From Eubacteriaceae bacterium (GTDB lineage: Bacteria; Bacillota; Clostridia; Eubacteriales; Anaerofustaceae): a stretch of DNA of 64,000 bases. The notes beneath the pieces were generated by a model. It saw only the letters and a program-made list of their open reading frames with translations. It was not told the DNA's origin and searched no databases. Position 1 is the stretch's first letter. Each line of letters opens with the position of its first letter. Of the stretch, positions 13,016 to 40,161 are shown one piece after another. The position numbers were made by a program, and so were the translations under genes. The DNA is taken from NCBI GenBank assembly GCA_009782515.1, contig WRIY01000005.1:812-64811 (forward strand). The letters are read 5' to 3'.

Positions 13016-13047
13016 CAAGGATGAGAGCGAATTCTCATCCTTGTTTT
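13016..13047 (+). terminator. Rho-independent terminator after the ABC operon
   Basis: A perfect 11-bp stem (CAAGGATGAGA / TCTCATCCTTG) with a 6-nt loop, followed by TTTT. Confidence 0.7.
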
Positions 13048-13104
13048 GGCTGCTGCTTGTTTCGCCTGCACAGGCAGCATGCCAAATGCTCTAAGGAGAA
13101 AGCT

Positions 13105-13914
13105 ATGAACAAAGCGAATAGCCATAAAAAACTGCCTGCCCAGGCAATAGCAGCAATTTTTGTTTTTGCTGTTTTAATTGCATTGGCGTTTGCGTGGGCT
13201 GTTTTTGCAGATGTTATCATACTGCGCAAAACCGAAGGCTTAGGCGGGGCAGAGCGCGCTATTTCGATTTTATATGTTGGTGACAGCTTTATTTTTGTCG
13301 GCGGGCTCCCAAGGCAGCTGCAAGCGATTGCCAGGGCCAGCGGCATTGATACATCCTATAAAGATATTTCAAGGCACGCAAACCGCGGAGGCACCCTGAA
13401 AGAGAACATGGAAAATGCAATTAGGGAGTTGCAAAGCGGCAGATATAGCTACATTGTCATTCATGATCAGAATAGGAAGTCTCTTAGCGACATCGAAGGC
13501 CTGCTCGCAGATATACAAACACTGTGCAATGCTGCTGTTGAAAATGGGGCCATACCAGTGCTATATGATTTTGCAGGAATTGCAGCACACGGCAAGCCTG
13601 ATGAAGAGCGCCTAAGCATTTCTATTAATGCATACAGGCAAGCTGCAAATAGCAATAATGCCATTTTAGTCAGGGCTGCCGAGGCCTGGGTTTACGCATA
13701 TCAAGCGATGCCGGAAATTTCACTGTACACCAGGTTTGACCCTCGCGGCCTTCACCCAAGCAGGGCGGGAGGGTTTATGAGTGCATGCGTTTTTGCTGCT
13801 GAAGTGTTTGGCATACAAGTAACACAGATGCCAAAAGGCAGCATATATACAGGCAGTGACGCTCTCGGCCTTGCACAGGCTGCATGGGATTTCGCCAGCT
13901 TGCCTCGGGAGTGA
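13105..13914 (+). CDS. Membrane-anchored SGNH/GDSL-type hydrolase
   Basis: AAGGAG lies 6 nt before the ATG at 13105, and the track's 13021 start would lie inside the terminator hairpin. There is an N-terminal TM segment, block I ILYVGDSF, and a C-terminal DPRGLHPS (DxxH). Confidence 0.65.
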   Translation: MNKANSHKKLPAQAIAAIFVFAVLIALAFAWAVFADVIILRKTEGLGGAERAISILYVGDSFIFVGGLPRQLQAIARASGIDTSYKDISRHANRGGTLKENMENAIRELQSGRYSYIVIHDQNRKSLSDIEGLLADIQTLCNAAVENGAIPVLYDFAGIAAHGKPDEERLSISINAYRQAANSNNAILVRAAEAWVYAYQAMPEISLYTRFDPRGLHPSRAGGFMSACVFAAEVFGIQVTQMPKGSIYTGSDALGLAQAAWDFASLPRE

Positions 13915-13996: not shown

Positions 13997-14018
13997 AAAA
14001 AACCCCTGCTAAGCGGGG
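13997..14018 (-). terminator. Probable terminator of the zinc-ribbon/ACS-like bicistron
   Basis: On the minus strand, a CCCGC(U)... hairpin (plus-strand CCCTGC-TAA-GCGGGG, 6 bp including one G-U pair) is followed by T6. Confidence 0.5.
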
Positions 14019-14092
14019 TTTAGGCGTGGCTTGTACTTTAAGTGCCAGTATAAAAAACGGGAGCAAAGGCACATATAATCCACGATTGGCGG

Positions 14093-16177
14093 CTATACGA
14101 GAATCGGCATTGTGGAAACCGGGTGCTTTGTGTCCTGAAGGTGCCTCTTTAGCTCCTCAAGCGTCACGCCAATGCTTTCATCGCATATCATTTCAGCGAA
14201 ATCCTCTATGCCGGTAAGCTCTTTGGCTCTTAAGTTTATTTCATCCCTGTATTCGTCTTTTAGCGATTTTGGCATCCAAACAACTCTTATAATGCCCCCT
14301 TCCGGCTGCAAATACTTTTTTGAGGCAATATAGCTTTTGCTGTGCCCCATTGCGCCAGGCGCCTGTTTCGCAGCGCTCGCCATAAACGCCAGCTCTGAAA
14401 AGCGCAGCCCCATGGGCGTAGCTCCGGAGTAGTCTTTGGGAACAGCAAGCACGCCGCTGGTAGACGGCTCAACTGCGCTAATGCACTCAAAGGCGCCAAT
14501 AGAAGGCATCGGATCCTGCATCAGCGAATAGATTGCCACATTCTTATAGCCTTTTTCAAGAGTGGCATCAACTTCAGCATACCTTCCCAGCAGGGCATCA
14601 GACGCCTCCCCTTTTGCTATGGCCATAATTGAAGGCGAGTTGCCTTTTGAGAGGGCGTGCTCTGAGTAAGCGCTATAGTAGTCAACAGCGCCGCATATGC
14701 CGGGCTTTTCGGGAGTAATAGCGCAAAAATGCGAACTCTGGTATTTGCGGCAAGCAGTGCAGGCATAAAAGAGCTTCACATTCTCGTCAGTAAGCTCACT
14801 AAGCCTTTCTGAACGTATTTTCGTTAATGGCGCTGCCACATTTGCCTCAATATTCTCAGACAGGCTCTGCTCAGTAATTATTGTTACCCGGCACTTAGAA
14901 ACGATATCTCCATATTCTTTTATCACCTGGCTGTATATCGACTGGCCAAGTGACTCATCTGTAAATCCTTTGTCATAAGCAGCCTTGCTAATGCGCAAGG
15001 TCGCTGAGCCAAAGTTCATGCTTAGGCTAACCCCTTCTATGCGATTAATCCATATGCTTAGCTGTTTTTCAGCGAATAGTTCAAACTCGTGCTCAATATT
15101 GGGGCCATGGCACTCTACCAGGATTGAAAGGCTTGAGCCATCTATAAGCCCATACCCCTTTGTTTCGACCTGGCTGTTGCCCGGCCAGTCGCTTCTGCTA
15201 AAAAAGAGCAAAAAGCCTGAATTTTCAGGCCATCCCAGCTGGGCATGCAGCTCGCCAGGCATAACTGCTTCATTCTGAAATGACGGGGAGTATGCATTTG
15301 CAGCAAAGCTTTCGCGCTCTACAGCCTCAATTCCACGAAGCCTGAATGAAATATCAGCCATCTTGCCTATGCCGTTTGAGCTCTCATAAGCTGTTGGCAC
15401 ATATGCTGAGCCGAGGCCTGCTTCAGCTATAGCCGGAAAGCCAAGCGCCATACAGCTCGCAGCGCAAGCAGCAGCAATCCCCGAAACCTCTCCGAGAATG
15501 TTTAAAAAAACAGGCAAAGAGCTTTTTGAAAAGCTGAAAAGGGAGCTTATGCTGCCGCCTGAAGATTCGCTGAAAATTTCAGCAAAGCGAAGGATTGCAG
15601 CAAATGCTTGTGAGCATGAGGCAAATGAAAAAACCCGATACTCTTTTCCGCCCTTTATTGAGCAGTTTTTTGCTTGGCCTGCAGCGCTGCCGGCCAAAAA
15701 AACAACAGCGCCGCTTTCCTGGTACTTCCGCACTAAGCCTTCAAACGCCTTATCGTCTTTAGTTTGGCCTATTATTAGCGCAATAGCAGGCACATCGCCT
15801 CTGGCAAGAGGGACTGCCAGATCCCTTATATCTGCGTCGGGCATATAGTTAAGGCTGAATGCCTCGGCATCATCCATATGCTCCAGTGCTTGAAGCGACT
15901 CAAGCCACAACAAAGCATACAAGCCCTCGTTGAAAGCAGATCCCAAGGCTCCTTCAGCTGGCATTATTTCCGGTTTTTCATACAAAGCTTTTTGTAGATC
16001 GCTTAGGTCTAAAACACTGATTCCTCTAAGGGCATGCATAAGCTGCAGAGTATATGGAAGGCGTGCTTCAAATCCATGCTTTTCGGCTGCATTGCCCAAA
16101 GCTTCCTGTGCTTGGCTGAGCAGCAAGGCTGACTCGCTTGCAGCCAAATCCTCTAATACACTCACGGCCCGCCTCAA
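14093..16177 (-). CDS. Acetyl-CoA synthase (AcsB/CdhC-family) paralogue lacking the Cys-Gly-Cys Ni ligands
   Basis: It aligns along its full length with the canonical AcsB at 33982-36120. It keeps CTACRKYQSSHFCAITPEKPGIC and GHSKSYIASKKYLQPEGGIIRVVWMPK, but the CGC position reads IGA (14492-14500). The start is non-ATG: the TTG at 16177, or the GTG at 16165 with GAGG upstream. Confidence 0.85.
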   Translation of the reverse strand: MRRAVSVLEDLAASESALLLSQAQEALGNAAEKHGFEARLPYTLQLMHALRGISVLDLSDLQKALYEKPEIMPAEGALGSAFNEGLYALLWLESLQALEHMDDAEAFSLNYMPDADIRDLAVPLARGDVPAIALIIGQTKDDKAFEGLVRKYQESGAVVFLAGSAAGQAKNCSIKGGKEYRVFSFASCSQAFAAILRFAEIFSESSGGSISSLFSFSKSSLPVFLNILGEVSGIAAACAASCMALGFPAIAEAGLGSAYVPTAYESSNGIGKMADISFRLRGIEAVERESFAANAYSPSFQNEAVMPGELHAQLGWPENSGFLLFFSRSDWPGNSQVETKGYGLIDGSSLSILVECHGPNIEHEFELFAEKQLSIWINRIEGVSLSMNFGSATLRISKAAYDKGFTDESLGQSIYSQVIKEYGDIVSKCRVTIITEQSLSENIEANVAAPLTKIRSERLSELTDENVKLFYACTACRKYQSSHFCAITPEKPGICGAVDYYSAYSEHALSKGNSPSIMAIAKGEASDALLGRYAEVDATLEKGYKNVAIYSLMQDPMPSIGAFECISAVEPSTSGVLAVPKDYSGATPMGLRFSELAFMASAAKQAPGAMGHSKSYIASKKYLQPEGGIIRVVWMPKSLKDEYRDEINLRAKELTGIEDFAEMICDESIGVTLEELKRHLQDTKHPVSTMPILV

Positions 16178-16740
16178 TCAAAGCTTTCGCCGCACTCAGG
16201 GCATTCTGTTGATCCAAGAGGGGCAAGTTTGTGGCAGTATGGGCACACATTTATCTGCACCGGCTCGCTCTCATACTCATCTTCGTCCTCAGCCCGGATG
16301 TCGCTTATGTTTGTATTGCAGTAAGTGCAAAACATAAGCTCAGAGTTTACCGGCTTTGAGCAAATGGGGCAAATTGCCTCTCTTGATGAAGTCCCGGAGT
16401 AAACATCAGCAACTTTTGTTCCGCAATCGCTGCAGTATTTCATATCAGTTGAGAGCTTGGCTCCGCACTCCCTGCATACGCCATGCACTTTTAGCGCAGA
16501 CATCTTGTCTTTTATAATTTCTATCTCAGTAGCAGCCTGCTTAGCCTTTAGAACATATGCAGCAAGCTCTGCATCAGCAACATCACCCTCAAGCGATTTG
16601 AGGTATTTTTCACCCAAATCTCTATACGCTCTTCTTAGCGCGTATTCTGCATTCTTCAGATCAGCGGTAGCTATCGAAAAATCTATTGTATTTTTGCCTT
16701 GCTGCGCTATCCTTCTTGCTAAGCCATCTAAAAAGGCCAT
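16174..16740 (-). CDS. Coiled-coil protein with three CxxC-x10-CxxC zinc ribbons
   Basis: GGAGG lies 5 nt before the ATG at 16740. The N-terminal ~90 aa form a charged helical region. The three ribbons are CRECGAKLSTDMKYCSDCG, CPICSKPVNSELMFCTYCN and CPYCHKLAPLGSTECPECG. The stop codon overlaps the start of the ACS-like gene. Confidence 0.75.
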   Translation of the reverse strand: MAFLDGLARRIAQQGKNTIDFSIATADLKNAEYALRRAYRDLGEKYLKSLEGDVADAELAAYVLKAKQAATEIEIIKDKMSALKVHGVCRECGAKLSTDMKYCSDCGTKVADVYSGTSSREAICPICSKPVNSELMFCTYCNTNISDIRAEDEDEYESEPVQINVCPYCHKLAPLGSTECPECGESFD

Positions 16741-16922
16741 TTCCACCTCCAGCATTGGCAGTCCGGTATTGCAAAGCCAATCTCTTTATATTATATCATT
16801 GCAGTTTCGCCAAGAAAACATTAGGCACGAGGCAAAAGCTGCGCTGCAATAGTGTTATAAGTAGCCAATTAAGCGTGCTTTATTATGAAAAATTGCTATA
16901 ATTATGATCAAAGAGGATTTAT

Positions 16923-33981: not shown

Positions 33982-36120
33982 TTACATCAAAGGATCCATG
34001 CTTAGCGCCGGATGGTTCTTTTCAGTAAGGAATTCAACCAATGTTTCTTCGTCTGGAGCGGTCTCTTCGTCAGCAATCATGTCAACAAAGTTATCGATGC
34101 CATAAAGCTCTTTTGCAGTATGGTTCAGCCTGTCAGCAACTGTCTCTTTAAGCTGCTTTGGCATCCAAACGATTCTCTCGATTCCGCCTTCAGCGCGCAT
34201 GAACTTCTTGGAAGCAATAAAATGCTTGCCGTGGCCCATGAAGCCAGGGGTTTGGATTCCACCGCCGGTCATCGAAGCAAGCTCTCCGAAGCTCATTCCG
34301 ATTGGCGTTGTGCCAACATATTCGCGGTTAACAATGATAACACCGTTTGATGCCGGCTCAATGCCGCAAATGCACTCGAAGCATCCGCATGATGTCATTG
34401 GATCTTCAAGTATGGAGTAAAGGGTTACTTGGCTTAGAGCGCCGCGTGAGTACTGGGCAACAGCAGCGTTAACATCATCCCAAGATCCCATAACTTCATC
34501 AATAAGGCCACCTTTTGTTACGATTTGGCACGGGCCTGAAGGATCAAGCTCTTTTGTAGCTTTAGCATCCAGCCAGGATACAGCGCCGCACAGGCCCAGA
34601 CGCTCCGGGGTAACTATGCATACGTGAGATGGCGAGAATGACTGGCATAGAGTGCATGTGTAGAATACATCAACTGACTCGTCAGTTAGAGATTCAAGCC
34701 TCTCATCACGCTTGTCCCAAATAGGGATGGCGACGTTAAATCTGAAGTCTTTGCATTCTTCAGCGTCTGTATAGACTGTTACTTGGCATTTGTCAACAAC
34801 AGCTTCGAACTCGTCTTTCATCTTTGCATATAAGACTTCGCCAAAATGCTTTGCACGGAAGCCTGCATTAAATGCAGTTTTTGATACACGGATATTGGAG
34901 TTGTCTCTTTGGCCTGTATGCATGATGCCTTCCATGTTGTTGATGAAATGGTGGATCTTGCGCTCGAGCACTGACTCGAAGTCGCTTTGCATAGCATTGC
35001 CTGCTACTTCAACCAGAAGGCCAAGGTTAAAGCGGCCGCCTTCTTCAAACTCTTCGAAATCTTTGCCAATAAGCGTGATCTTATGATCTTCGATATCATT
35101 GGCATCTATTGTTCTAACAAGCTCGAAGCAGTCGAGGCGGGAGCCGTTTGCCTCCAGCTGCATATCGTTTCTGCGAATGATTTCGCCTTCGAAGGCAGCT
35201 GCATATGAAACAGGTATATCCATCTCTGTGATCTTGATCTTTATGTTGCGCATTTCTATAGAAGCGTCAACATAGTTCTCATATTCGTTGTATAAGAGAA
35301 GGGATTTTGGCACTGACCAGATATTTTCTGTTTCATCAGTCATTACAGGGAATCCGAGGGCGATAGCGCCGCCGCCGCATGCCACTGTCATATCATCGAG
35401 TGGAGCAAATGCATTTACAAATGCCTTAACGCGATCGAAGGTGTATTTTAGTATTCCGTCATAATCGCCAGGGGTGCAAGCGCCAAATATAAGGGCTGCG
35501 CGGATAGCAACGCTGACAACATGGATAACTGATGGGAGTTCCGGCCCAAGGGGAACTATGCGGATTTTGAAGCCAAGGTTAACATCGGCTGCAATAGCCT
35601 GATCTATAATTCCGCCAACCAGGAACACCATTATTCCCTTTGCCTGATAGCCTTTAATCAAATCTGCAGCTATTTCAGGTGAAGGGGCTTCGTGGATAAG
35701 CACAGCCACGCCCGGGATATCGTCAGTAACAAGAGGCACGCCAAGCTCACGGATCTCAGCATCTGACAGATGCCCATGATAGCGATCATCATATGGCTTT
35801 TCGTTTCCATTAAGCATGTACTTAACGGTCTCGATGACTTCGGCTGAAAGCGCAGTTCCAACACCGGATGTGAATACATTGTGAAGCTGCGGATCATGGT
35901 TCATGAACTCTTGAATATCTGCTAGAGCTTCCTCTTTTAAAGACGCAAGCGTCGGGTATTTCTTGCCAGTGAAAGCATATAGGCATGGAAGCCCATAAGC
36001 AGTGTTTGGCAAGGAGACTGCTGCTTCTGGCCCAAGCTGGTTAATGGCGTCATCAACAGCTTTTGCAGCAAGGTTGAACATATCATCAGAGCCATTAAAG
36101 ACTCTATCGAAAAGTGTCAT
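33982..36120 (-). CDS. acsB: Acetyl-CoA synthase (CO-methylating), A-cluster subunit
   Basis: CTLCQSFSPSHVCIVTPERLGLC, then 66 residues, then SCGCFEC. This spacing is identical to Cys506/509/518/528 and Cys595-Gly596-Cys597 of Moorella ACS. AAGGAG lies 5 nt before the ATG. The gene follows cooS and cooC. Confidence 0.92.
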   Translation of the reverse strand: MTLFDRVFNGSDDMFNLAAKAVDDAINQLGPEAAVSLPNTAYGLPCLYAFTGKKYPTLASLKEEALADIQEFMNHDPQLHNVFTSGVGTALSAEVIETVKYMLNGNEKPYDDRYHGHLSDAEIRELGVPLVTDDIPGVAVLIHEAPSPEIAADLIKGYQAKGIMVFLVGGIIDQAIAADVNLGFKIRIVPLGPELPSVIHVVSVAIRAALIFGACTPGDYDGILKYTFDRVKAFVNAFAPLDDMTVACGGGAIALGFPVMTDETENIWSVPKSLLLYNEYENYVDASIEMRNIKIKITEMDIPVSYAAAFEGEIIRRNDMQLEANGSRLDCFELVRTIDANDIEDHKITLIGKDFEEFEEGGRFNLGLLVEVAGNAMQSDFESVLERKIHHFINNMEGIMHTGQRDNSNIRVSKTAFNAGFRAKHFGEVLYAKMKDEFEAVVDKCQVTVYTDAEECKDFRFNVAIPIWDKRDERLESLTDESVDVFYTCTLCQSFSPSHVCIVTPERLGLCGAVSWLDAKATKELDPSGPCQIVTKGGLIDEVMGSWDDVNAAVAQYSRGALSQVTLYSILEDPMTSCGCFECICGIEPASNGVIIVNREYVGTTPIGMSFGELASMTGGGIQTPGFMGHGKHFIASKKFMRAEGGIERIVWMPKQLKETVADRLNHTAKELYGIDNFVDMIADEETAPDEETLVEFLTEKNHPALSMDPLM

Positions 36121-36137
36121 AACTTCTCCTTATAAAT

Positions 36138-36920
36138 TTATACCTTTAATAAATCGTGGTCAATCTTGTTCTTTATAAGATCAACTTCCTGTATGGCTTG
36201 GCTGCTAAAGTCAAATGGAGATTTTCCCTGCCTGTCCGCTTCAATGAGATCTGTATTGTAATGTATCATGCCCAACAGATCCTCTGAAGGAACGTTTGCC
36301 TCAACAAAAGCCTCATCTTCAGCGTCCCGCACCTTATTGGCAACTACTTTTATCTTGTCAACGCCCAGATCAACAGCAAGCTTCTTAACCTTTTCATAAG
36401 TCTGGATGCTGCGAGATCCCGGCTCAATGACTACTACAAAAGAGTCAACGCTTGATGCAGTGCCTCTTCCAAGATGCTCAATGCCGGCTTCCATATCCAT
36501 TATCACAACGTCGTCAGAATATAGGACAAGATGCGATATGATCCTTTTGATTAATACATTCTCAGGGCATACGCATCCAGCTCCGCCAGATTCAACTGTG
36601 CCAAGTGTTAAAAGCTTGACGCCGTTGTATTTTTTAGCGTACATATCAGGAATGTCATCAACTTTAGGGTTAATCTTAAAGAATTTGCCCATGTTCTCCT
36701 CAGAAGCGCCGGTTCGTTCGTTGACAAGCTTCTTCAGATGCGCGATTGGCACGATTTGATCAAGAATTCTCTTATCAAAACCAAGAGCAAGGCCCAGATT
36801 GGCATCTGGATCCGCATCGACTGCCAAAACATTCTTGCCTTCATTCGCATACAGCCTTGCTAGAATGGCGGAGAAAGTAGTCTTTCCTACTCCGCCTTTT
36901 CCTGTTACAGCAATTTTCAT
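36138..36920 (-). CDS. cooC: CODH nickel-insertion accessory ATPase (CooC/AcsF)
   Basis: The P-loop is MKIAVTGKGGVGKTT, and the metal-binding motif is GGAGCVCPEN (CxC). The family is MinD/ParA-like. Confidence 0.9.
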   Translation of the reverse strand: MKIAVTGKGGVGKTTFSAILARLYANEGKNVLAVDADPDANLGLALGFDKRILDQIVPIAHLKKLVNERTGASEENMGKFFKINPKVDDIPDMYAKKYNGVKLLTLGTVESGGAGCVCPENVLIKRIISHLVLYSDDVVIMDMEAGIEHLGRGTASSVDSFVVVIEPGSRSIQTYEKVKKLAVDLGVDKIKVVANKVRDAEDEAFVEANVPSEDLLGMIHYNTDLIEADRQGKSPFDFSSQAIQEVDLIKNKIDHDLLKV

Positions 36921-36943
36921 ACAGAAATTTCCTTTAAACTTTC

Positions 36944-38878
36944 TTAGATGCCGAGTGCAAGCCTCTTCTCTTCGATTCTCTGAATCATAGCATCGCCTAG
37001 CTTGTCTACATCAGTTTCGAATGTGAAGGCTGCGCCTGTCCAATCTCTTGCCTGGTTGGTCAGGATATCTTTAACAACATCAGAACCGTCAACGTAAGGC
37101 ACGATTCCCAGGAATGTGTCGATTCCGGTTGAGATAACATAGTTGCCGATTGAAACAGCTTTTTCGCTCATCCATTCTGGCGCACATCCAACAACTGGAA
37201 GCTGAGGAACGTCAATGCCCCACTGATCAGCTACTTGGTTGACGAGAATCATCATGCGGCTTATGTCAACGCATGATCCCATGTGCAGCACTGGAGGAAT
37301 GTTGGCGAGTTCGCATACGCGCTTAATGCCTGCACCAGCGATGTCTTTAGCTTCAAAGTTCATCAGGCCGCCTTTGGCAGCTGATTGTGCTGAGCAGCCG
37401 GAAAGAACCAAAATGATATCGTTCTTAAGCAGCTTCTTCATGAGCTCAATATGTGCAAAGTCAGCCCTTACTTTCGGGTTGTTGCAGCCAACCATGGCCA
37501 CAGCGCCTCTTAGCACGCCTGATTCTATGCACTCGATGAGTGGCTTCCATGTGCCGAGTTCATCAATATAAGAAGAAGTAACCGTATCAAGCTGCTTAAT
37601 GATGGCTTCGCATGAGTATCCAACTCTAGCTTTAGCTTTCATTTGTGGAATATACACAGCCTCTTGGTCACGGTTTTTGAAGTTTTCAATAGCTGCTGTC
37701 AGGATGTTGCGCGCATTTTCGCCAGCTGTCTGTGCATTAAAGCGAATGAATTCAGCATCTGGCATCTGGGCAACAACAGAAGTAGTTATGAATTTTGTGT
37801 GGAAGCACTTGCTAAGCGGCCCAAGAGCTGGGAAGATGCACTGTACGTCAACTACGACAGCTTCCATTGCCCCTGTCAGCACAGCGTTCTCCTGCTGCAG
37901 GAAGTTGCCTGCCATTGGTATTCCGTGGCGCATGGTTACTTCGTTGGATGTGCAGCAAATGCCTACAATGTTAACGCCTTTGGCGCCAACAGACTTTGCC
38001 AGAGCAATAAGGTCTGCGTCATTGGCATGCTCAACGATCATCTCTGAAAGAGAAGGATCATGCCCATGAACCATAATGTTTACATATTCTTTGTCAATAA
38101 CTCCGAGGTTAGCCTCTGTATCGATTGGCTTTGGAGTTCCAAACATGATATCTGAAAACTCTGTTCCCATCATAGAACCGCCCCAGCCATCTGACAAACC
38201 GGCGCGAAGAGCTTGCTTAATTAGAACATCGGGAAGTGATGAGCACCCTATATGGGTCATATGCTGTGAGGTTGATACTTCACGATCAATAGCCCTTGGC
38301 TCTATGCCCAGCTTCGCCCATGTTTCCTGGCGCTCTTTTGTTGCCCTTGAGAGGAAGCGAAGTGTGCCAAACGGCTTGCCATATTCTTGAAGCCCTTCAA
38401 ATGCGACTTCGTGCGCGAGTTCATATATGTCTCTGCCTTCTGTCTCTATGCCCCACTCTTGTGCCAGCCTGATAAGTTTGTCGGGATCTTTAATCTTGTA
38501 GTTTCCATCTTCTGCTGTCTCGTGCAGAGTATGGCAGATTTCGCGGCCATGATCTGAGTGTGTTGCTGAGCCGGCTGCTGTAAAGCGCAGATAGTTGCGT
38601 GCAACTATGCCATGAACATCACAGCCGCAGATGCCTTTAGGCGCCTTGGCGGTTATGCGGCAAGGACCCATTGCGCAGATTTTGCAGCATACGCCTGTTT
38701 CTCCAAATTTGCAATGCGGAGATTGGTTTTGAGACCTCGTTATCCACGAGTCTGCATTCTTTTCCTGGCCAATCGCGAGCAGTTTAGCATATTCCGCTTC
38801 CATTACGTCGATGGCAATCAGGTTTTCTGTCGCTTTGGAGATCCTTTCTTCCAAAACAGACAATATCTTAGTTTCCAT
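36944..38878 (-). CDS. cooS: Anaerobic Ni-Fe-S carbon monoxide dehydrogenase catalytic subunit
   Basis: The N-terminal Cys cluster is CKFGETGVCCKICAMGPCRI, with later GICGC, HGHD, CCTSNE and GSCVD motifs. AAGGAGG lies 5 nt before the ATG at 38878, so I reject the track's 15-aa extension to 38923. Confidence 0.92.
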   Translation of the reverse strand: METKILSVLEERISKATENLIAIDVMEAEYAKLLAIGQEKNADSWITRSQNQSPHCKFGETGVCCKICAMGPCRITAKAPKGICGCDVHGIVARNYLRFTAAGSATHSDHGREICHTLHETAEDGNYKIKDPDKLIRLAQEWGIETEGRDIYELAHEVAFEGLQEYGKPFGTLRFLSRATKERQETWAKLGIEPRAIDREVSTSQHMTHIGCSSLPDVLIKQALRAGLSDGWGGSMMGTEFSDIMFGTPKPIDTEANLGVIDKEYVNIMVHGHDPSLSEMIVEHANDADLIALAKSVGAKGVNIVGICCTSNEVTMRHGIPMAGNFLQQENAVLTGAMEAVVVDVQCIFPALGPLSKCFHTKFITTSVVAQMPDAEFIRFNAQTAGENARNILTAAIENFKNRDQEAVYIPQMKAKARVGYSCEAIIKQLDTVTSSYIDELGTWKPLIECIESGVLRGAVAMVGCNNPKVRADFAHIELMKKLLKNDIILVLSGCSAQSAAKGGLMNFEAKDIAGAGIKRVCELANIPPVLHMGSCVDISRMMILVNQVADQWGIDVPQLPVVGCAPEWMSEKAVSIGNYVISTGIDTFLGIVPYVDGSDVVKDILTNQARDWTGAAFTFETDVDKLGDAMIQRIEEKRLALGI

Positions 38879-39449
38879 TGAAACCTCCTTGACATGCTTA
38901 TGTTGCTTGCTGGCGCGCTTCATTTTTGAAAATAAGTAGGAGTTATACTATATTTTATTGTCTGAATCGCACCAAAAGAAATATGTTCCGGATGGATTAT
39001 AGCAAAAAAGCAGCAATAAAACAATGATTAGTTACTGCCAGGCATTCAAATTTTCGAGAGAGATTTTTGGCTGTTTCTAGAATTTTATTGTATTAATGAC
39101 GCTGTCTACAATATTTTAGCGCGATATTTCGATAAATAACCATCTGTTGCCCTGAGTGCAGGATTCATGCGCGATCATGATATAGCAATCATTATAAGTT
39201 TTCGCAAAATTTGAAAAAAACGCAAATAAGAAATTCAGTATTGCATGTCTTTTTTCAATCGCTTATAGGGCTGCAAGCTGCCATCATTGCCTCTAAGCAG
39301 CACAGTTTGCTGCTTGGCTGTGGGATCGCTGCAATGCAAAATTATTGGAAGGAATGGGGTTTTATGAGCAATCCGGCATAAAGCCAGGGCAAAAGTGCAA
39401 ATGCTGTAAAAAAGCGTGTGCCGAAAATGAAAGAACACGGCATTTCGAC

Positions 39450-39480: not shown

Positions 39481-40161
39481 CTAATAGCTATTTCTGCTGC
39501 CCGCCATGTACATTCTGACCAATTGCTCTACATGCTCGTAGTTGCCATTGTTTGCGTAAATCAATGCAGTTTGGCCTGAAGGCTTGTGCAATGCTATTTC
39601 GAGCTTTTCAGGGCGATACTCAGCGCTAATGTAGTCACCCCATGGATTTATTGGCATACCATGCATAAGCGTGCCGGCATTCTTTGCCATTTTTATGCCA
39701 TGCGAAACAACGCTGGGGTTAGCCTTGCCAGACGTTGCTGCAACTGATGCCATTCCCAGCATAGCGAGCCTTTTCGCTACATCAGGCGGATAGCTGCAGG
39801 CATAGCCCTCCCGGGCTATGACCCACAAAGTGCGCTCAACACCCCATTTCTTTTGCTTGCCCTTATAGGCCCATGTGATTATATAGACTGCAAGCGCCAC
39901 AATGCCGCCCATAATAACTGGCACGAACCAAAAGCCTTCAGCAAGTGCAACCAGCAAGCCGATTCCAGTCATCGGCAGCCATGCCAGCAGTATTATTGCG
40001 ATAATTGCTTTCCGGCTATAGAGGCTGCTTGCCGTTTCATAGCTGTATTCGCCTGGAGCCGGCATAGCCGCCGATCTGGCAAGGCCGCACTCAGGGCAAA
40101 AGTTTGCCCCCTCGCGCATGTAGGCCCCGCAATGCTCACAGTGCGCGGCAGATTCCATCAT
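39481..40161 (-). CDS. Zinc-ribbon / two-TM protein with an uncharacterised C-terminal domain
   Basis: CEHCGAYMREGANFCPECG lies at the N-terminus. Two hydrophobic helices follow (AIIAIILLAWLPMTGIGLLVAL, VPVIMGGIVALAVYIITWAY), then about 125 aa that I do not recognise. Confidence 0.7.
   Translation of the reverse strand: MMESAAHCEHCGAYMREGANFCPECGLARSAAMPAPGEYSYETASSLYSRKAIIAIILLAWLPMTGIGLLVALAEGFWFVPVIMGGIVALAVYIITWAYKGKQKKWGVERTLWVIAREGYACSYPPDVAKRLAMLGMASVAATSGKANPSVVSHGIKMAKNAGTLMHGMPINPWGDYISAEYRPEKLEIALHKPSGQTALIYANNGNYEHVEQLVRMYMAGSRNSY

Follow-up and report, generated by a model that had tools for sequence, protein, structure and literature searches.

Few Ni-Fe-S enzymes have been studied as much as acetyl-CoA synthase (ACS), and its presence is usually taken to mark the Wood-Ljungdahl pathway. 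The closest described relatives of the protein considered here are the bacterial AcsB enzymes of C. autoethanogenum (6YTT chain A) and Moorella thermoacetica (1OAO/1MJG). We analyzed a 64,000-nucleotide stretch of DNA from a Eubacteriaceae bacterium (GenBank assembly GCA_009782515.1, contig WRIY01000005.1, positions 812 to 64,811 of the forward strand), hereafter called the window, in which a gene for an ACS-like protein lies just downstream of a gene for a triple zinc-ribbon protein. All coordinates are those of the window unless a contig is named. The ACS-like protein has the same A1-A2-A3 architecture as bacterial AcsB over its full length, and the two have in common the CxxC-x8-C-x9-C cubane motif and the conserved C-terminal GGIxRxVWMPKxLK block. 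It differs from bacterial AcsB in having Ile-Gly-Ala in place of the Ni-binding Cys-Gly-Cys, Lys for Arg383, Ser for His386, Tyr for Phe512, and a degenerate HxGQR motif; in addition, its gene is unlinked to cooS, cooC, acsCDE, or any other C1 gene. Searches of the full-text literature found no description of Ni-less AcsB paralogues, and the one paper reporting a "second acsB copy" dealt with canonical duplicates. The pseudo-ACS operon is real and undescribed.

Loss of the nickel site in an ACS-like protein

The ACS-like protein matched PF19436 with 246.6 bits and PF03598 with 54.8 bits. Its best match in the Protein Data Bank (PDB) was the C. autoethanogenum ACS (6ytt_A, E = 1.7e-113), with an alignment that ran the full length of the protein, as did the alignment to 1oao. 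The scores against whole-family models were well below the levels set for true ACS: 456.3 against an equivalog cut-off of 800 for NF040764, and 213 against a cut-off of 355.95 for TIGR00316. Compared with the canonical AcsB encoded in the same window (33982-36120), identity was 31% overall and 26, 25, and 44% in A1, A2, and A3, respectively. The first-pass annotation had described the N-terminal domain as retained but divergent, and its 26% identity, together with a PF18537 score of 23.4 bits, below the cut-off, bears this out. Two short segments of the protein contain the metal-ligand positions:

14693 to 14761, minus strand: retained [4Fe-4S] ligand motif, C469-x2-C472-x8-C481-x9-C491, equivalent to Moorella C506/C509/C518/C528
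14492 to 14500, minus strand: Ile556-Gly557-Ala558, replacing the Ni-binding Cys595-Gly596-Cys597

The four cubane cysteines were invariant in all 17 ACS-type sequences aligned, and the protein very probably can still hold a [4Fe-4S] cluster. The Ni site reads Ser-Ile-Gly-Ala-Phe-Glu in place of Ser-Cys-Gly-Cys-Phe-Glu (C595I, C597A). In the acetyl-CoA complex structure of the C. autoethanogenum enzyme, Arg383, His386, Gly399, and Phe491 are important (bioRxiv 10.1101/2024.08.05.606187); at these four positions the alignment places Lys, Ser, Met, and Tyr. C. autoethanogenum Phe491 corresponds to the gate residue Phe512 of Moorella, whose numbering was taken from the PDB alignment. The HxGQR motif reads LSMNF. 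Because both Ni-bridging cysteines, the Phe gate, the acetyl-transfer Arg and His, and HxGQR are all lost, the protein is predicted to be unable to form an A-cluster or to make or cleave acetyl-CoA. This loss of the Ni ligands and acetyl-transfer residues is the decisive fact about the locus, and the first-pass annotation made no use of it. An AlphaFold2 (AF2) model of the ACS-like protein, made from a 3-sequence alignment, had a predicted local distance difference test score (pLDDT) of 43.7 and was unusable.

Among 1.84 billion representatives searched exhaustively with HMMER, no other was more than 35% identical to the window protein. The two best matches, the metagenomic proteins P0012 (35%) and P0013 (33%), both lack Cys-Gly-Cys and have SGL and IGC in its place. 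A third homologue search, with a 3-sequence profile, returned the query alone. In a tree of the C-terminal domain, the window protein and eleven other representatives without Cys-Gly-Cys (non-CGC) fell beside the canonical ACS of the lineage with support of 99/98. In the full-length tree, a 98/96 split united seven Ni-less proteins: the window protein, P0012, P0013, P0018, P0022 (from genome G002), P0052 (from G012), and P0082 (related to a copy in G001). The other six were only 27–36% identical to the window protein. All seven kept the four cubane cysteines, had lost the Ni ligands, and had the derived residues W372, E591, and S609 in common. In the trees, the canonical lineage closest to the ACS-like protein was the one containing the window's own AcsB and the family's other canonical copies; the window AcsB differs from the ACS-like protein by a much shorter branch and by keeping the catalytic residues. 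On this phylogenetic evidence, the Ni-less group is derived from the lineage's own ACS.

The terminal branch of the window ACS-like protein was approximately six times longer than that of the canonical AcsB (1.66 vs 0.25), and 26 of the 90 columns invariant among canonical sequences were changed in at least five of the seven Ni-less members. A set of 26 columns, which includes the four cubane cysteines, was invariant across all 17 aligned sequences. Selection could be examined in genus g3, where the Ni-less protein is the only ACS homologue in each of three genomes (G002, G012, and G018; 91–96% complete) and where neither cooS nor CdhD was found. The ratio of nonsynonymous to synonymous substitution (dN/dS) for the Ni-less gene between G012 and G018 was 0.12, and those for neighboring genes were 0.11 and 0.02. 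Because this purifying selection acts in genomes lacking carbon monoxide dehydrogenase (CODH) and the corrinoid protein, the g3 members are judged to be functional proteins whose predicted role is independent of the carbonyl branch. We conclude with high confidence that the product of the window gene is predicted to be an intact, selected, Ni-less, and catalytically disabled Fe-S protein with the ACS fold.

Organization and recurrence of the gene pair

The following features define the pair and its boundaries:

16174 to 16740, minus strand: zinc-ribbon gene, 188 aa plus TGA (16176-16174), with ATG at 16740 and GGAGG (16750-16746) 5 nt upstream of the ATG
14093 to 16165, minus strand: Ni-less ACS-like (AcsB paralogue) gene, 690 aa plus TAG
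16163 to 16177, minus strand: junction, with TTG 16177-16175 overlapping TGA 16176-16174, the Shine-Dalgarno (SD) sequence GAGG at 16175-16172, a 6-nt spacer, and GTG 16165-16163
16790 to 16798, minus strand: extended −10 promoter-like element, TGATATAAT, approximately 50 nt 5' of the zinc-ribbon ATG and identified by direct reading of the sequence
13997 to 14021, minus strand: terminator-like hairpin and T-run between convergent genes, AAACCCC/GGGGUUU plus a U-run, ΔG −20.2 kcal/mol, z = −2.85

The longest open reading frame for the zinc-ribbon gene opens at 16755; the ATG used here, at 16740, is backed by the MAFF and MPIF N-termini of relatives. For the ACS-like gene, it had been proposed that a TTG overlapping the upstream TGA opens the reading frame. 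The overlap is real; however, the true start is most likely the GTG at 16165, because the deposited gene call (P0001; L177) is 690 aa long, because the downstream-gene ATG in L001, a 65%-identical relative, aligns with it codon for codon (MCALADIVASESS vs VSVLEDLAASES), and because P0012 and P0013 have their first residues at the equivalent point (MSGLAQL and MSVLTD vs VSVLED in the window). The genes are therefore 8 nt apart (TGA, 8 nt, GTG) and do not overlap. Tight coupling would still be expected in the window, because the SD sequence, 6 nt 5' of the GTG, straddles the upstream stop. The L001 junction is similar, with an ATG 9 nt past the stop codon and AGAGG straddling the stop. The translational coupling claimed in the first-pass annotation would fit the junctions in the window and L001, but it is not conserved in two further loci, L017 and L018, where the gaps are 171 and 378 nt.

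Nothing sits between the two genes in the window. The hairpin and T-run that had been noted at the end of the pair were found again by folding (14021-13997), having escaped a simple terminator scan. The sole report of the promoter consensus scan was a weaker site at 16911-16882, not the element at 16798-16790. We conclude with high confidence that the pair, which has bicistronic anatomy with a predicted promoter and terminator, is a predicted operon in this genome.

The three CxxC-x10-CxxC knuckles of the upstream protein, with an acidic stretch before the third, are present as first described:

16423 to 16476, minus strand: zinc ribbon 1, C89-x2-C92-x10-C103-x2-C106
16318 to 16371, minus strand: zinc ribbon 2, C124-x2-C127-x10-C138-x2-C141
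16192 to 16245, minus strand: zinc ribbon 3, C166-x2-C169-x10-C180-x2-C183, preceded by the acidic linker AEDEDEYESE

The protein passed the gathering cut-off of PF12773 (DZR) in two stretches (51.9 vs 27.3 bits), and all 12 cysteines were invariant in the alignment of four orthologues. Homologues in approximately 15% of the sampled class genomes resemble the window protein in having an N-terminal helical hairpin and two or three ribbons; the subgroup found next to ACS-like genes is distinguished by three ribbons, the acidic linker, and identities no higher than 31% to non-adjacent homologues. An AF2 model of moderate quality (mean pLDDT 68) contained a confident antiparallel helical hairpin (H2-50 and H56-83) followed by the three ribbons on low-confidence linkers. 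A Foldseek search of this model against the PDB gave no significant match, only generic alpha-hairpins (best E = 0.095), and PADLOC gave no defence-system match for either the zinc-ribbon protein or the ACS-like protein. A weak match to HypA (PF01155) was obtained (E = 0.0024; 18.3 bits vs a cut-off of 28.9), but it spanned only the generic ribbon region; identity as a HypA Ni metallochaperone was not supported, the score being below the gathering cut-off and the N-terminal Ni-binding region being unaligned.

A zinc-ribbon gene lies directly upstream of the ACS-like gene, on the same strand, in all four near-orthologue loci (the window, L001, L017, and L018). L017 and L018, the contigs encoding P0012 and P0013, each have a DZR gene of 187–196 aa immediately 5' of the ACS-like gene, as in the window. 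Their products are homologous to the window zinc-ribbon protein over the full length (36–39% identity), and identities reach 66% across the four loci. The loci are deeply diverged, with recD2 identities of 41–44% and GC contents from 46 to 57%. The four ACS-adjacent zinc-ribbon proteins were 35–66% identical to each other vs no more than 31% to any non-adjacent homologue. No terminator, promoter, or Rfam element was detected in the long spacers of L017 and L018. Order-wide and class-wide genome searches found no additional pair, and scans of genome and metagenome contigs with the zinc-ribbon profile found generic zinc ribbons only, none beside an ACS-like gene. Gene order and strand were conserved in the near-orthologue loci, but the two genes did not co-occur across the wider families of the two proteins.

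Deeper Ni-less members have other neighbors. In G012 (L014:5200-5907), G018 (L015:5203-5910), and the P0018 contig (L020:3-218), the Ni-less gene is divergently paired with a gene for a PRK04334/UPF0280-type protein of approximately 236 aa (NF003323, 248.9 bits, just below the cut-off of 271), and no zinc-ribbon gene adjoins it. This gene is absent from the window genome, and it may be an alternative conserved neighbor. Pfam searches of the neighbors of other clade members revealed no common functional theme (M20 peptidase, YceG, URO-D-like).

The first-pass annotation correctly noted that no gene for CODH, CooC, corrinoid Fe-S protein (CFeSP), or methyltransferase adjoins the ACS-like gene, and that the genuine operon lies approximately 18 kb away:

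33982 to 38923, minus strand: canonical cooS-cooC-acsB operon (cooS 36944-38923; cooC 36138-36920; acsB 33982-36120), given for context only; its AcsB carries SCGCFEC

Together with acsC/D/E-type genes on contig C4, this operon makes up a complete canonical set. The C4 region (G000, ~102-115 kb) also encodes another CooC-like protein and a corrinoid-activator-like protein, and a second, orphan cooS (32% identity) is located at C38:8604-10436. No CODH, CooC, CFeSP, or methyltransferase gene was found in the flanks of the window pair, L017, or L018, and none of the four pair loci is within an acs cluster. Just upstream of the canonical operon, 39481-40161 (minus strand) encodes a protein of 226 aa that begins with a Zn_Ribbon_1 domain and that the partner-protein profile did not detect. 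The pair itself is flanked by a divergent recD2, as had been noted, and by a convergent gene at 13021-13914 (plus strand), whose earlier label "SGNH hydrolase" was not upheld, with no Pfam family matched at E ≤ 0.01. The product of this gene has a GDSF-like motif and is called as 269 aa in L177.

Possible roles of the pair

The reading we favor, which we hold tentatively, is that the pair is one operon encoding a Ni-less Fe-S pseudo-enzyme with the zinc-ribbon protein as its subunit. The ACS-like protein would be a neofunctionalized Fe-S pseudo-enzyme for which the carbonyl branch of the Wood-Ljungdahl pathway is not needed, acting perhaps as a non-catalytic scaffold or sensor responsive to redox state or a ligand. 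The zinc-ribbon protein, with its predicted coiled-coil hairpin and three flexibly linked ribbons, would be the binding or adaptor subunit in this branch, and the 8-nt junction could give near-equimolar synthesis of the two proteins in the window lineage. We have moderate confidence that the zinc-ribbon protein is the predicted physical partner of the ACS-like protein in this branch. A bolder version, which we consider unlikely, is that the Ni-less proteins are a new [4Fe-4S] family outside C1 metabolism and, in the window branch, form an obligate heteromer with the triple zinc-ribbon subunit. Such a heteromer might serve as a regulatory complex that responds to redox state, CO, or thiols, its switch being adapted from the large domain motions of the ACS fold. 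An exit of the family from C1 metabolism would fit with its being kept in Clostridia-class genomes without CODH/ACS.

Several observations weigh against the favored reading, and most of them are what would be expected under its main competitor, a serious though less probable one, in which the two genes are neighbors by descent only. The ACS-like protein would then act by itself or with partners encoded elsewhere, the zinc-ribbon protein would be a general small Clostridia protein with a role of its own, the locus would be a slowly rearranging block, and the tight junction would be secondary compaction. The pair is indeed inside a syntenic block containing PfkB, RbsB-like, ACS-like, zinc-ribbon, trkAH (in some loci), recD2, hpf, and DUF5317 genes; because the loci are positional orthologues in a larger block of functionally unrelated genes, adjacency is weaker evidence than usual. 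The spacer of 171 nt in L017 and 378 nt in L018, compared with 8 nt in the window and 9 nt in L001, points the same way, and in those two loci (L017:32-3448, L018:2310-5595) the zinc-ribbon gene comes immediately after the K+ uptake genes trkA-trkH, at approximately 27–61 nt, nearer than it is to the ACS-like gene. (In the window genome, trkAH is on contig C6.) The first-pass annotation had presented the zinc-ribbon protein as a dedicated partner. This does not hold for its family: homologues including the N-terminal hairpin were present in 58 of 399 genomes evenly drawn from the class (~15%; profile of the four zinc-ribbon proteins, E ≤ 1e-12), none of which has a Ni-less ACS. Only 17 of these 399 genomes have ACS at all, and every copy fetched was canonical CGC. 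A zinc-ribbon homologue adjoins recD2 without an ACS-like gene in both G001, whose ACS-like genes are on other contigs, and G129. In genus g3 the ACS-like gene is present but no clear orthologue of the zinc-ribbon gene is, and the deeper Ni-less members (g3, G001, and P0018) have no adjacent zinc-ribbon gene. Finally, the clade is built on long branches, so that attraction artefacts are possible, and the three zinc-ribbon-linked ACS-like proteins are only 32–36% identical to each other, approximately as distant as each is from canonical ACS. Descent alone accounts less well for the identical order and strand in all four near-orthologue loci despite their deep divergence, for an SD-over-stop junction kept in two lineages, for the longer gaps of the other two loci, in which no terminator was found, and for the closer relationship of the ACS-adjacent zinc-ribbon proteins to each other than to their non-adjacent homologues.

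Two other proposals would tie the pair to canonical CODH/ACS, and both are disfavored because relatives are kept in genomes that lack ACS or CODH. In one, the ACS-like protein is an alternative CODH partner whose N-terminal domain docks on the CooS dimer and caps the CO tunnel or passes electrons through the cubane, with no acetyl-CoA made. The full-length N-terminal domain, the intact cubane, and the two cooS genes in the genome, one of them the orphan on C38, are compatible with this; but the N-terminal domain is among the most diverged parts of the protein, its PF18537 score is below the cut-off, clade relatives occur in genomes without cooS, and no CODH gene is near any of the four loci, so we regard the proposal as improbable. 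Equally hard to credit is a maturation or assembly factor, with the Ni-less fold as scaffold or decoy and the zinc-ribbon protein as a HypA-like metallochaperone loading AcsB. The complete canonical set in the genome and the weak HypA match could be cited for it, but that match is below the cut-off and confined to generic ribbon, the Ni-less members are under purifying selection in genomes without ACS, CODH, or CFeSP, and the zinc-ribbon family is common in ACS-free genomes while the pair is never in an acs cluster. That the ACS-like gene is the remnant of an acsB duplication, now decaying into a pseudogene, is largely refuted and very improbable. The long branch and the 26 changed canonical-invariant columns are as decay would have them; however, the 690-codon frame is intact, with an SD sequence and a predicted promoter and terminator, full-length orthologues persist at 33–35% identity, 26 columns are invariant in 17 sequences, and dN/dS is 0.12 in a sister lineage.

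Nickel-site loss in the family and its significance

Of the 136 ACS/CdhC representatives that cover the site, 59 (within P0012-P0160) have no Cys-Gly-Cys at the aligned position. Among them are a Cys-Ser-Cys group that recurs and numerous CdhC-like proteins of approximately 400 aa. The C-terminal-domain tree requires at least nine changes of the CGC label, and Ni-site loss in the ACS/CdhC superfamily looks frequent and polyphyletic. One variant, P0016 (L019:599-2671), is a 690-aa AcsB with Cys-Gly-Arg for Cys-Gly-Cys in an ordinary acs cluster, between acsE and a gene for a corrinoid-activator-like protein. It was considered as an orthologue of the window protein and rejected, given this position after acsE and its placement outside the seven-member group; its Cys-Gly-Arg may reflect recent inactivation or an error in sequencing. 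Across the family and order, many genomes (G007, G031, G035, G033, G025, and others) have acsB in two canonical (SCGCFE) copies, of which at least one is beside acsE/acsD.

The Ni-less paralogue still obtains strong ACS family matches, and an "acsB" annotation can therefore mislead metabolic reconstruction. For spectroscopy and structural studies, the ACS-like protein would also serve as a naturally Ni-free ACS scaffold. Should the zinc-ribbon protein prove to be its subunit, the pair would provide a first functional context for a widespread and uncharacterized DZR family.

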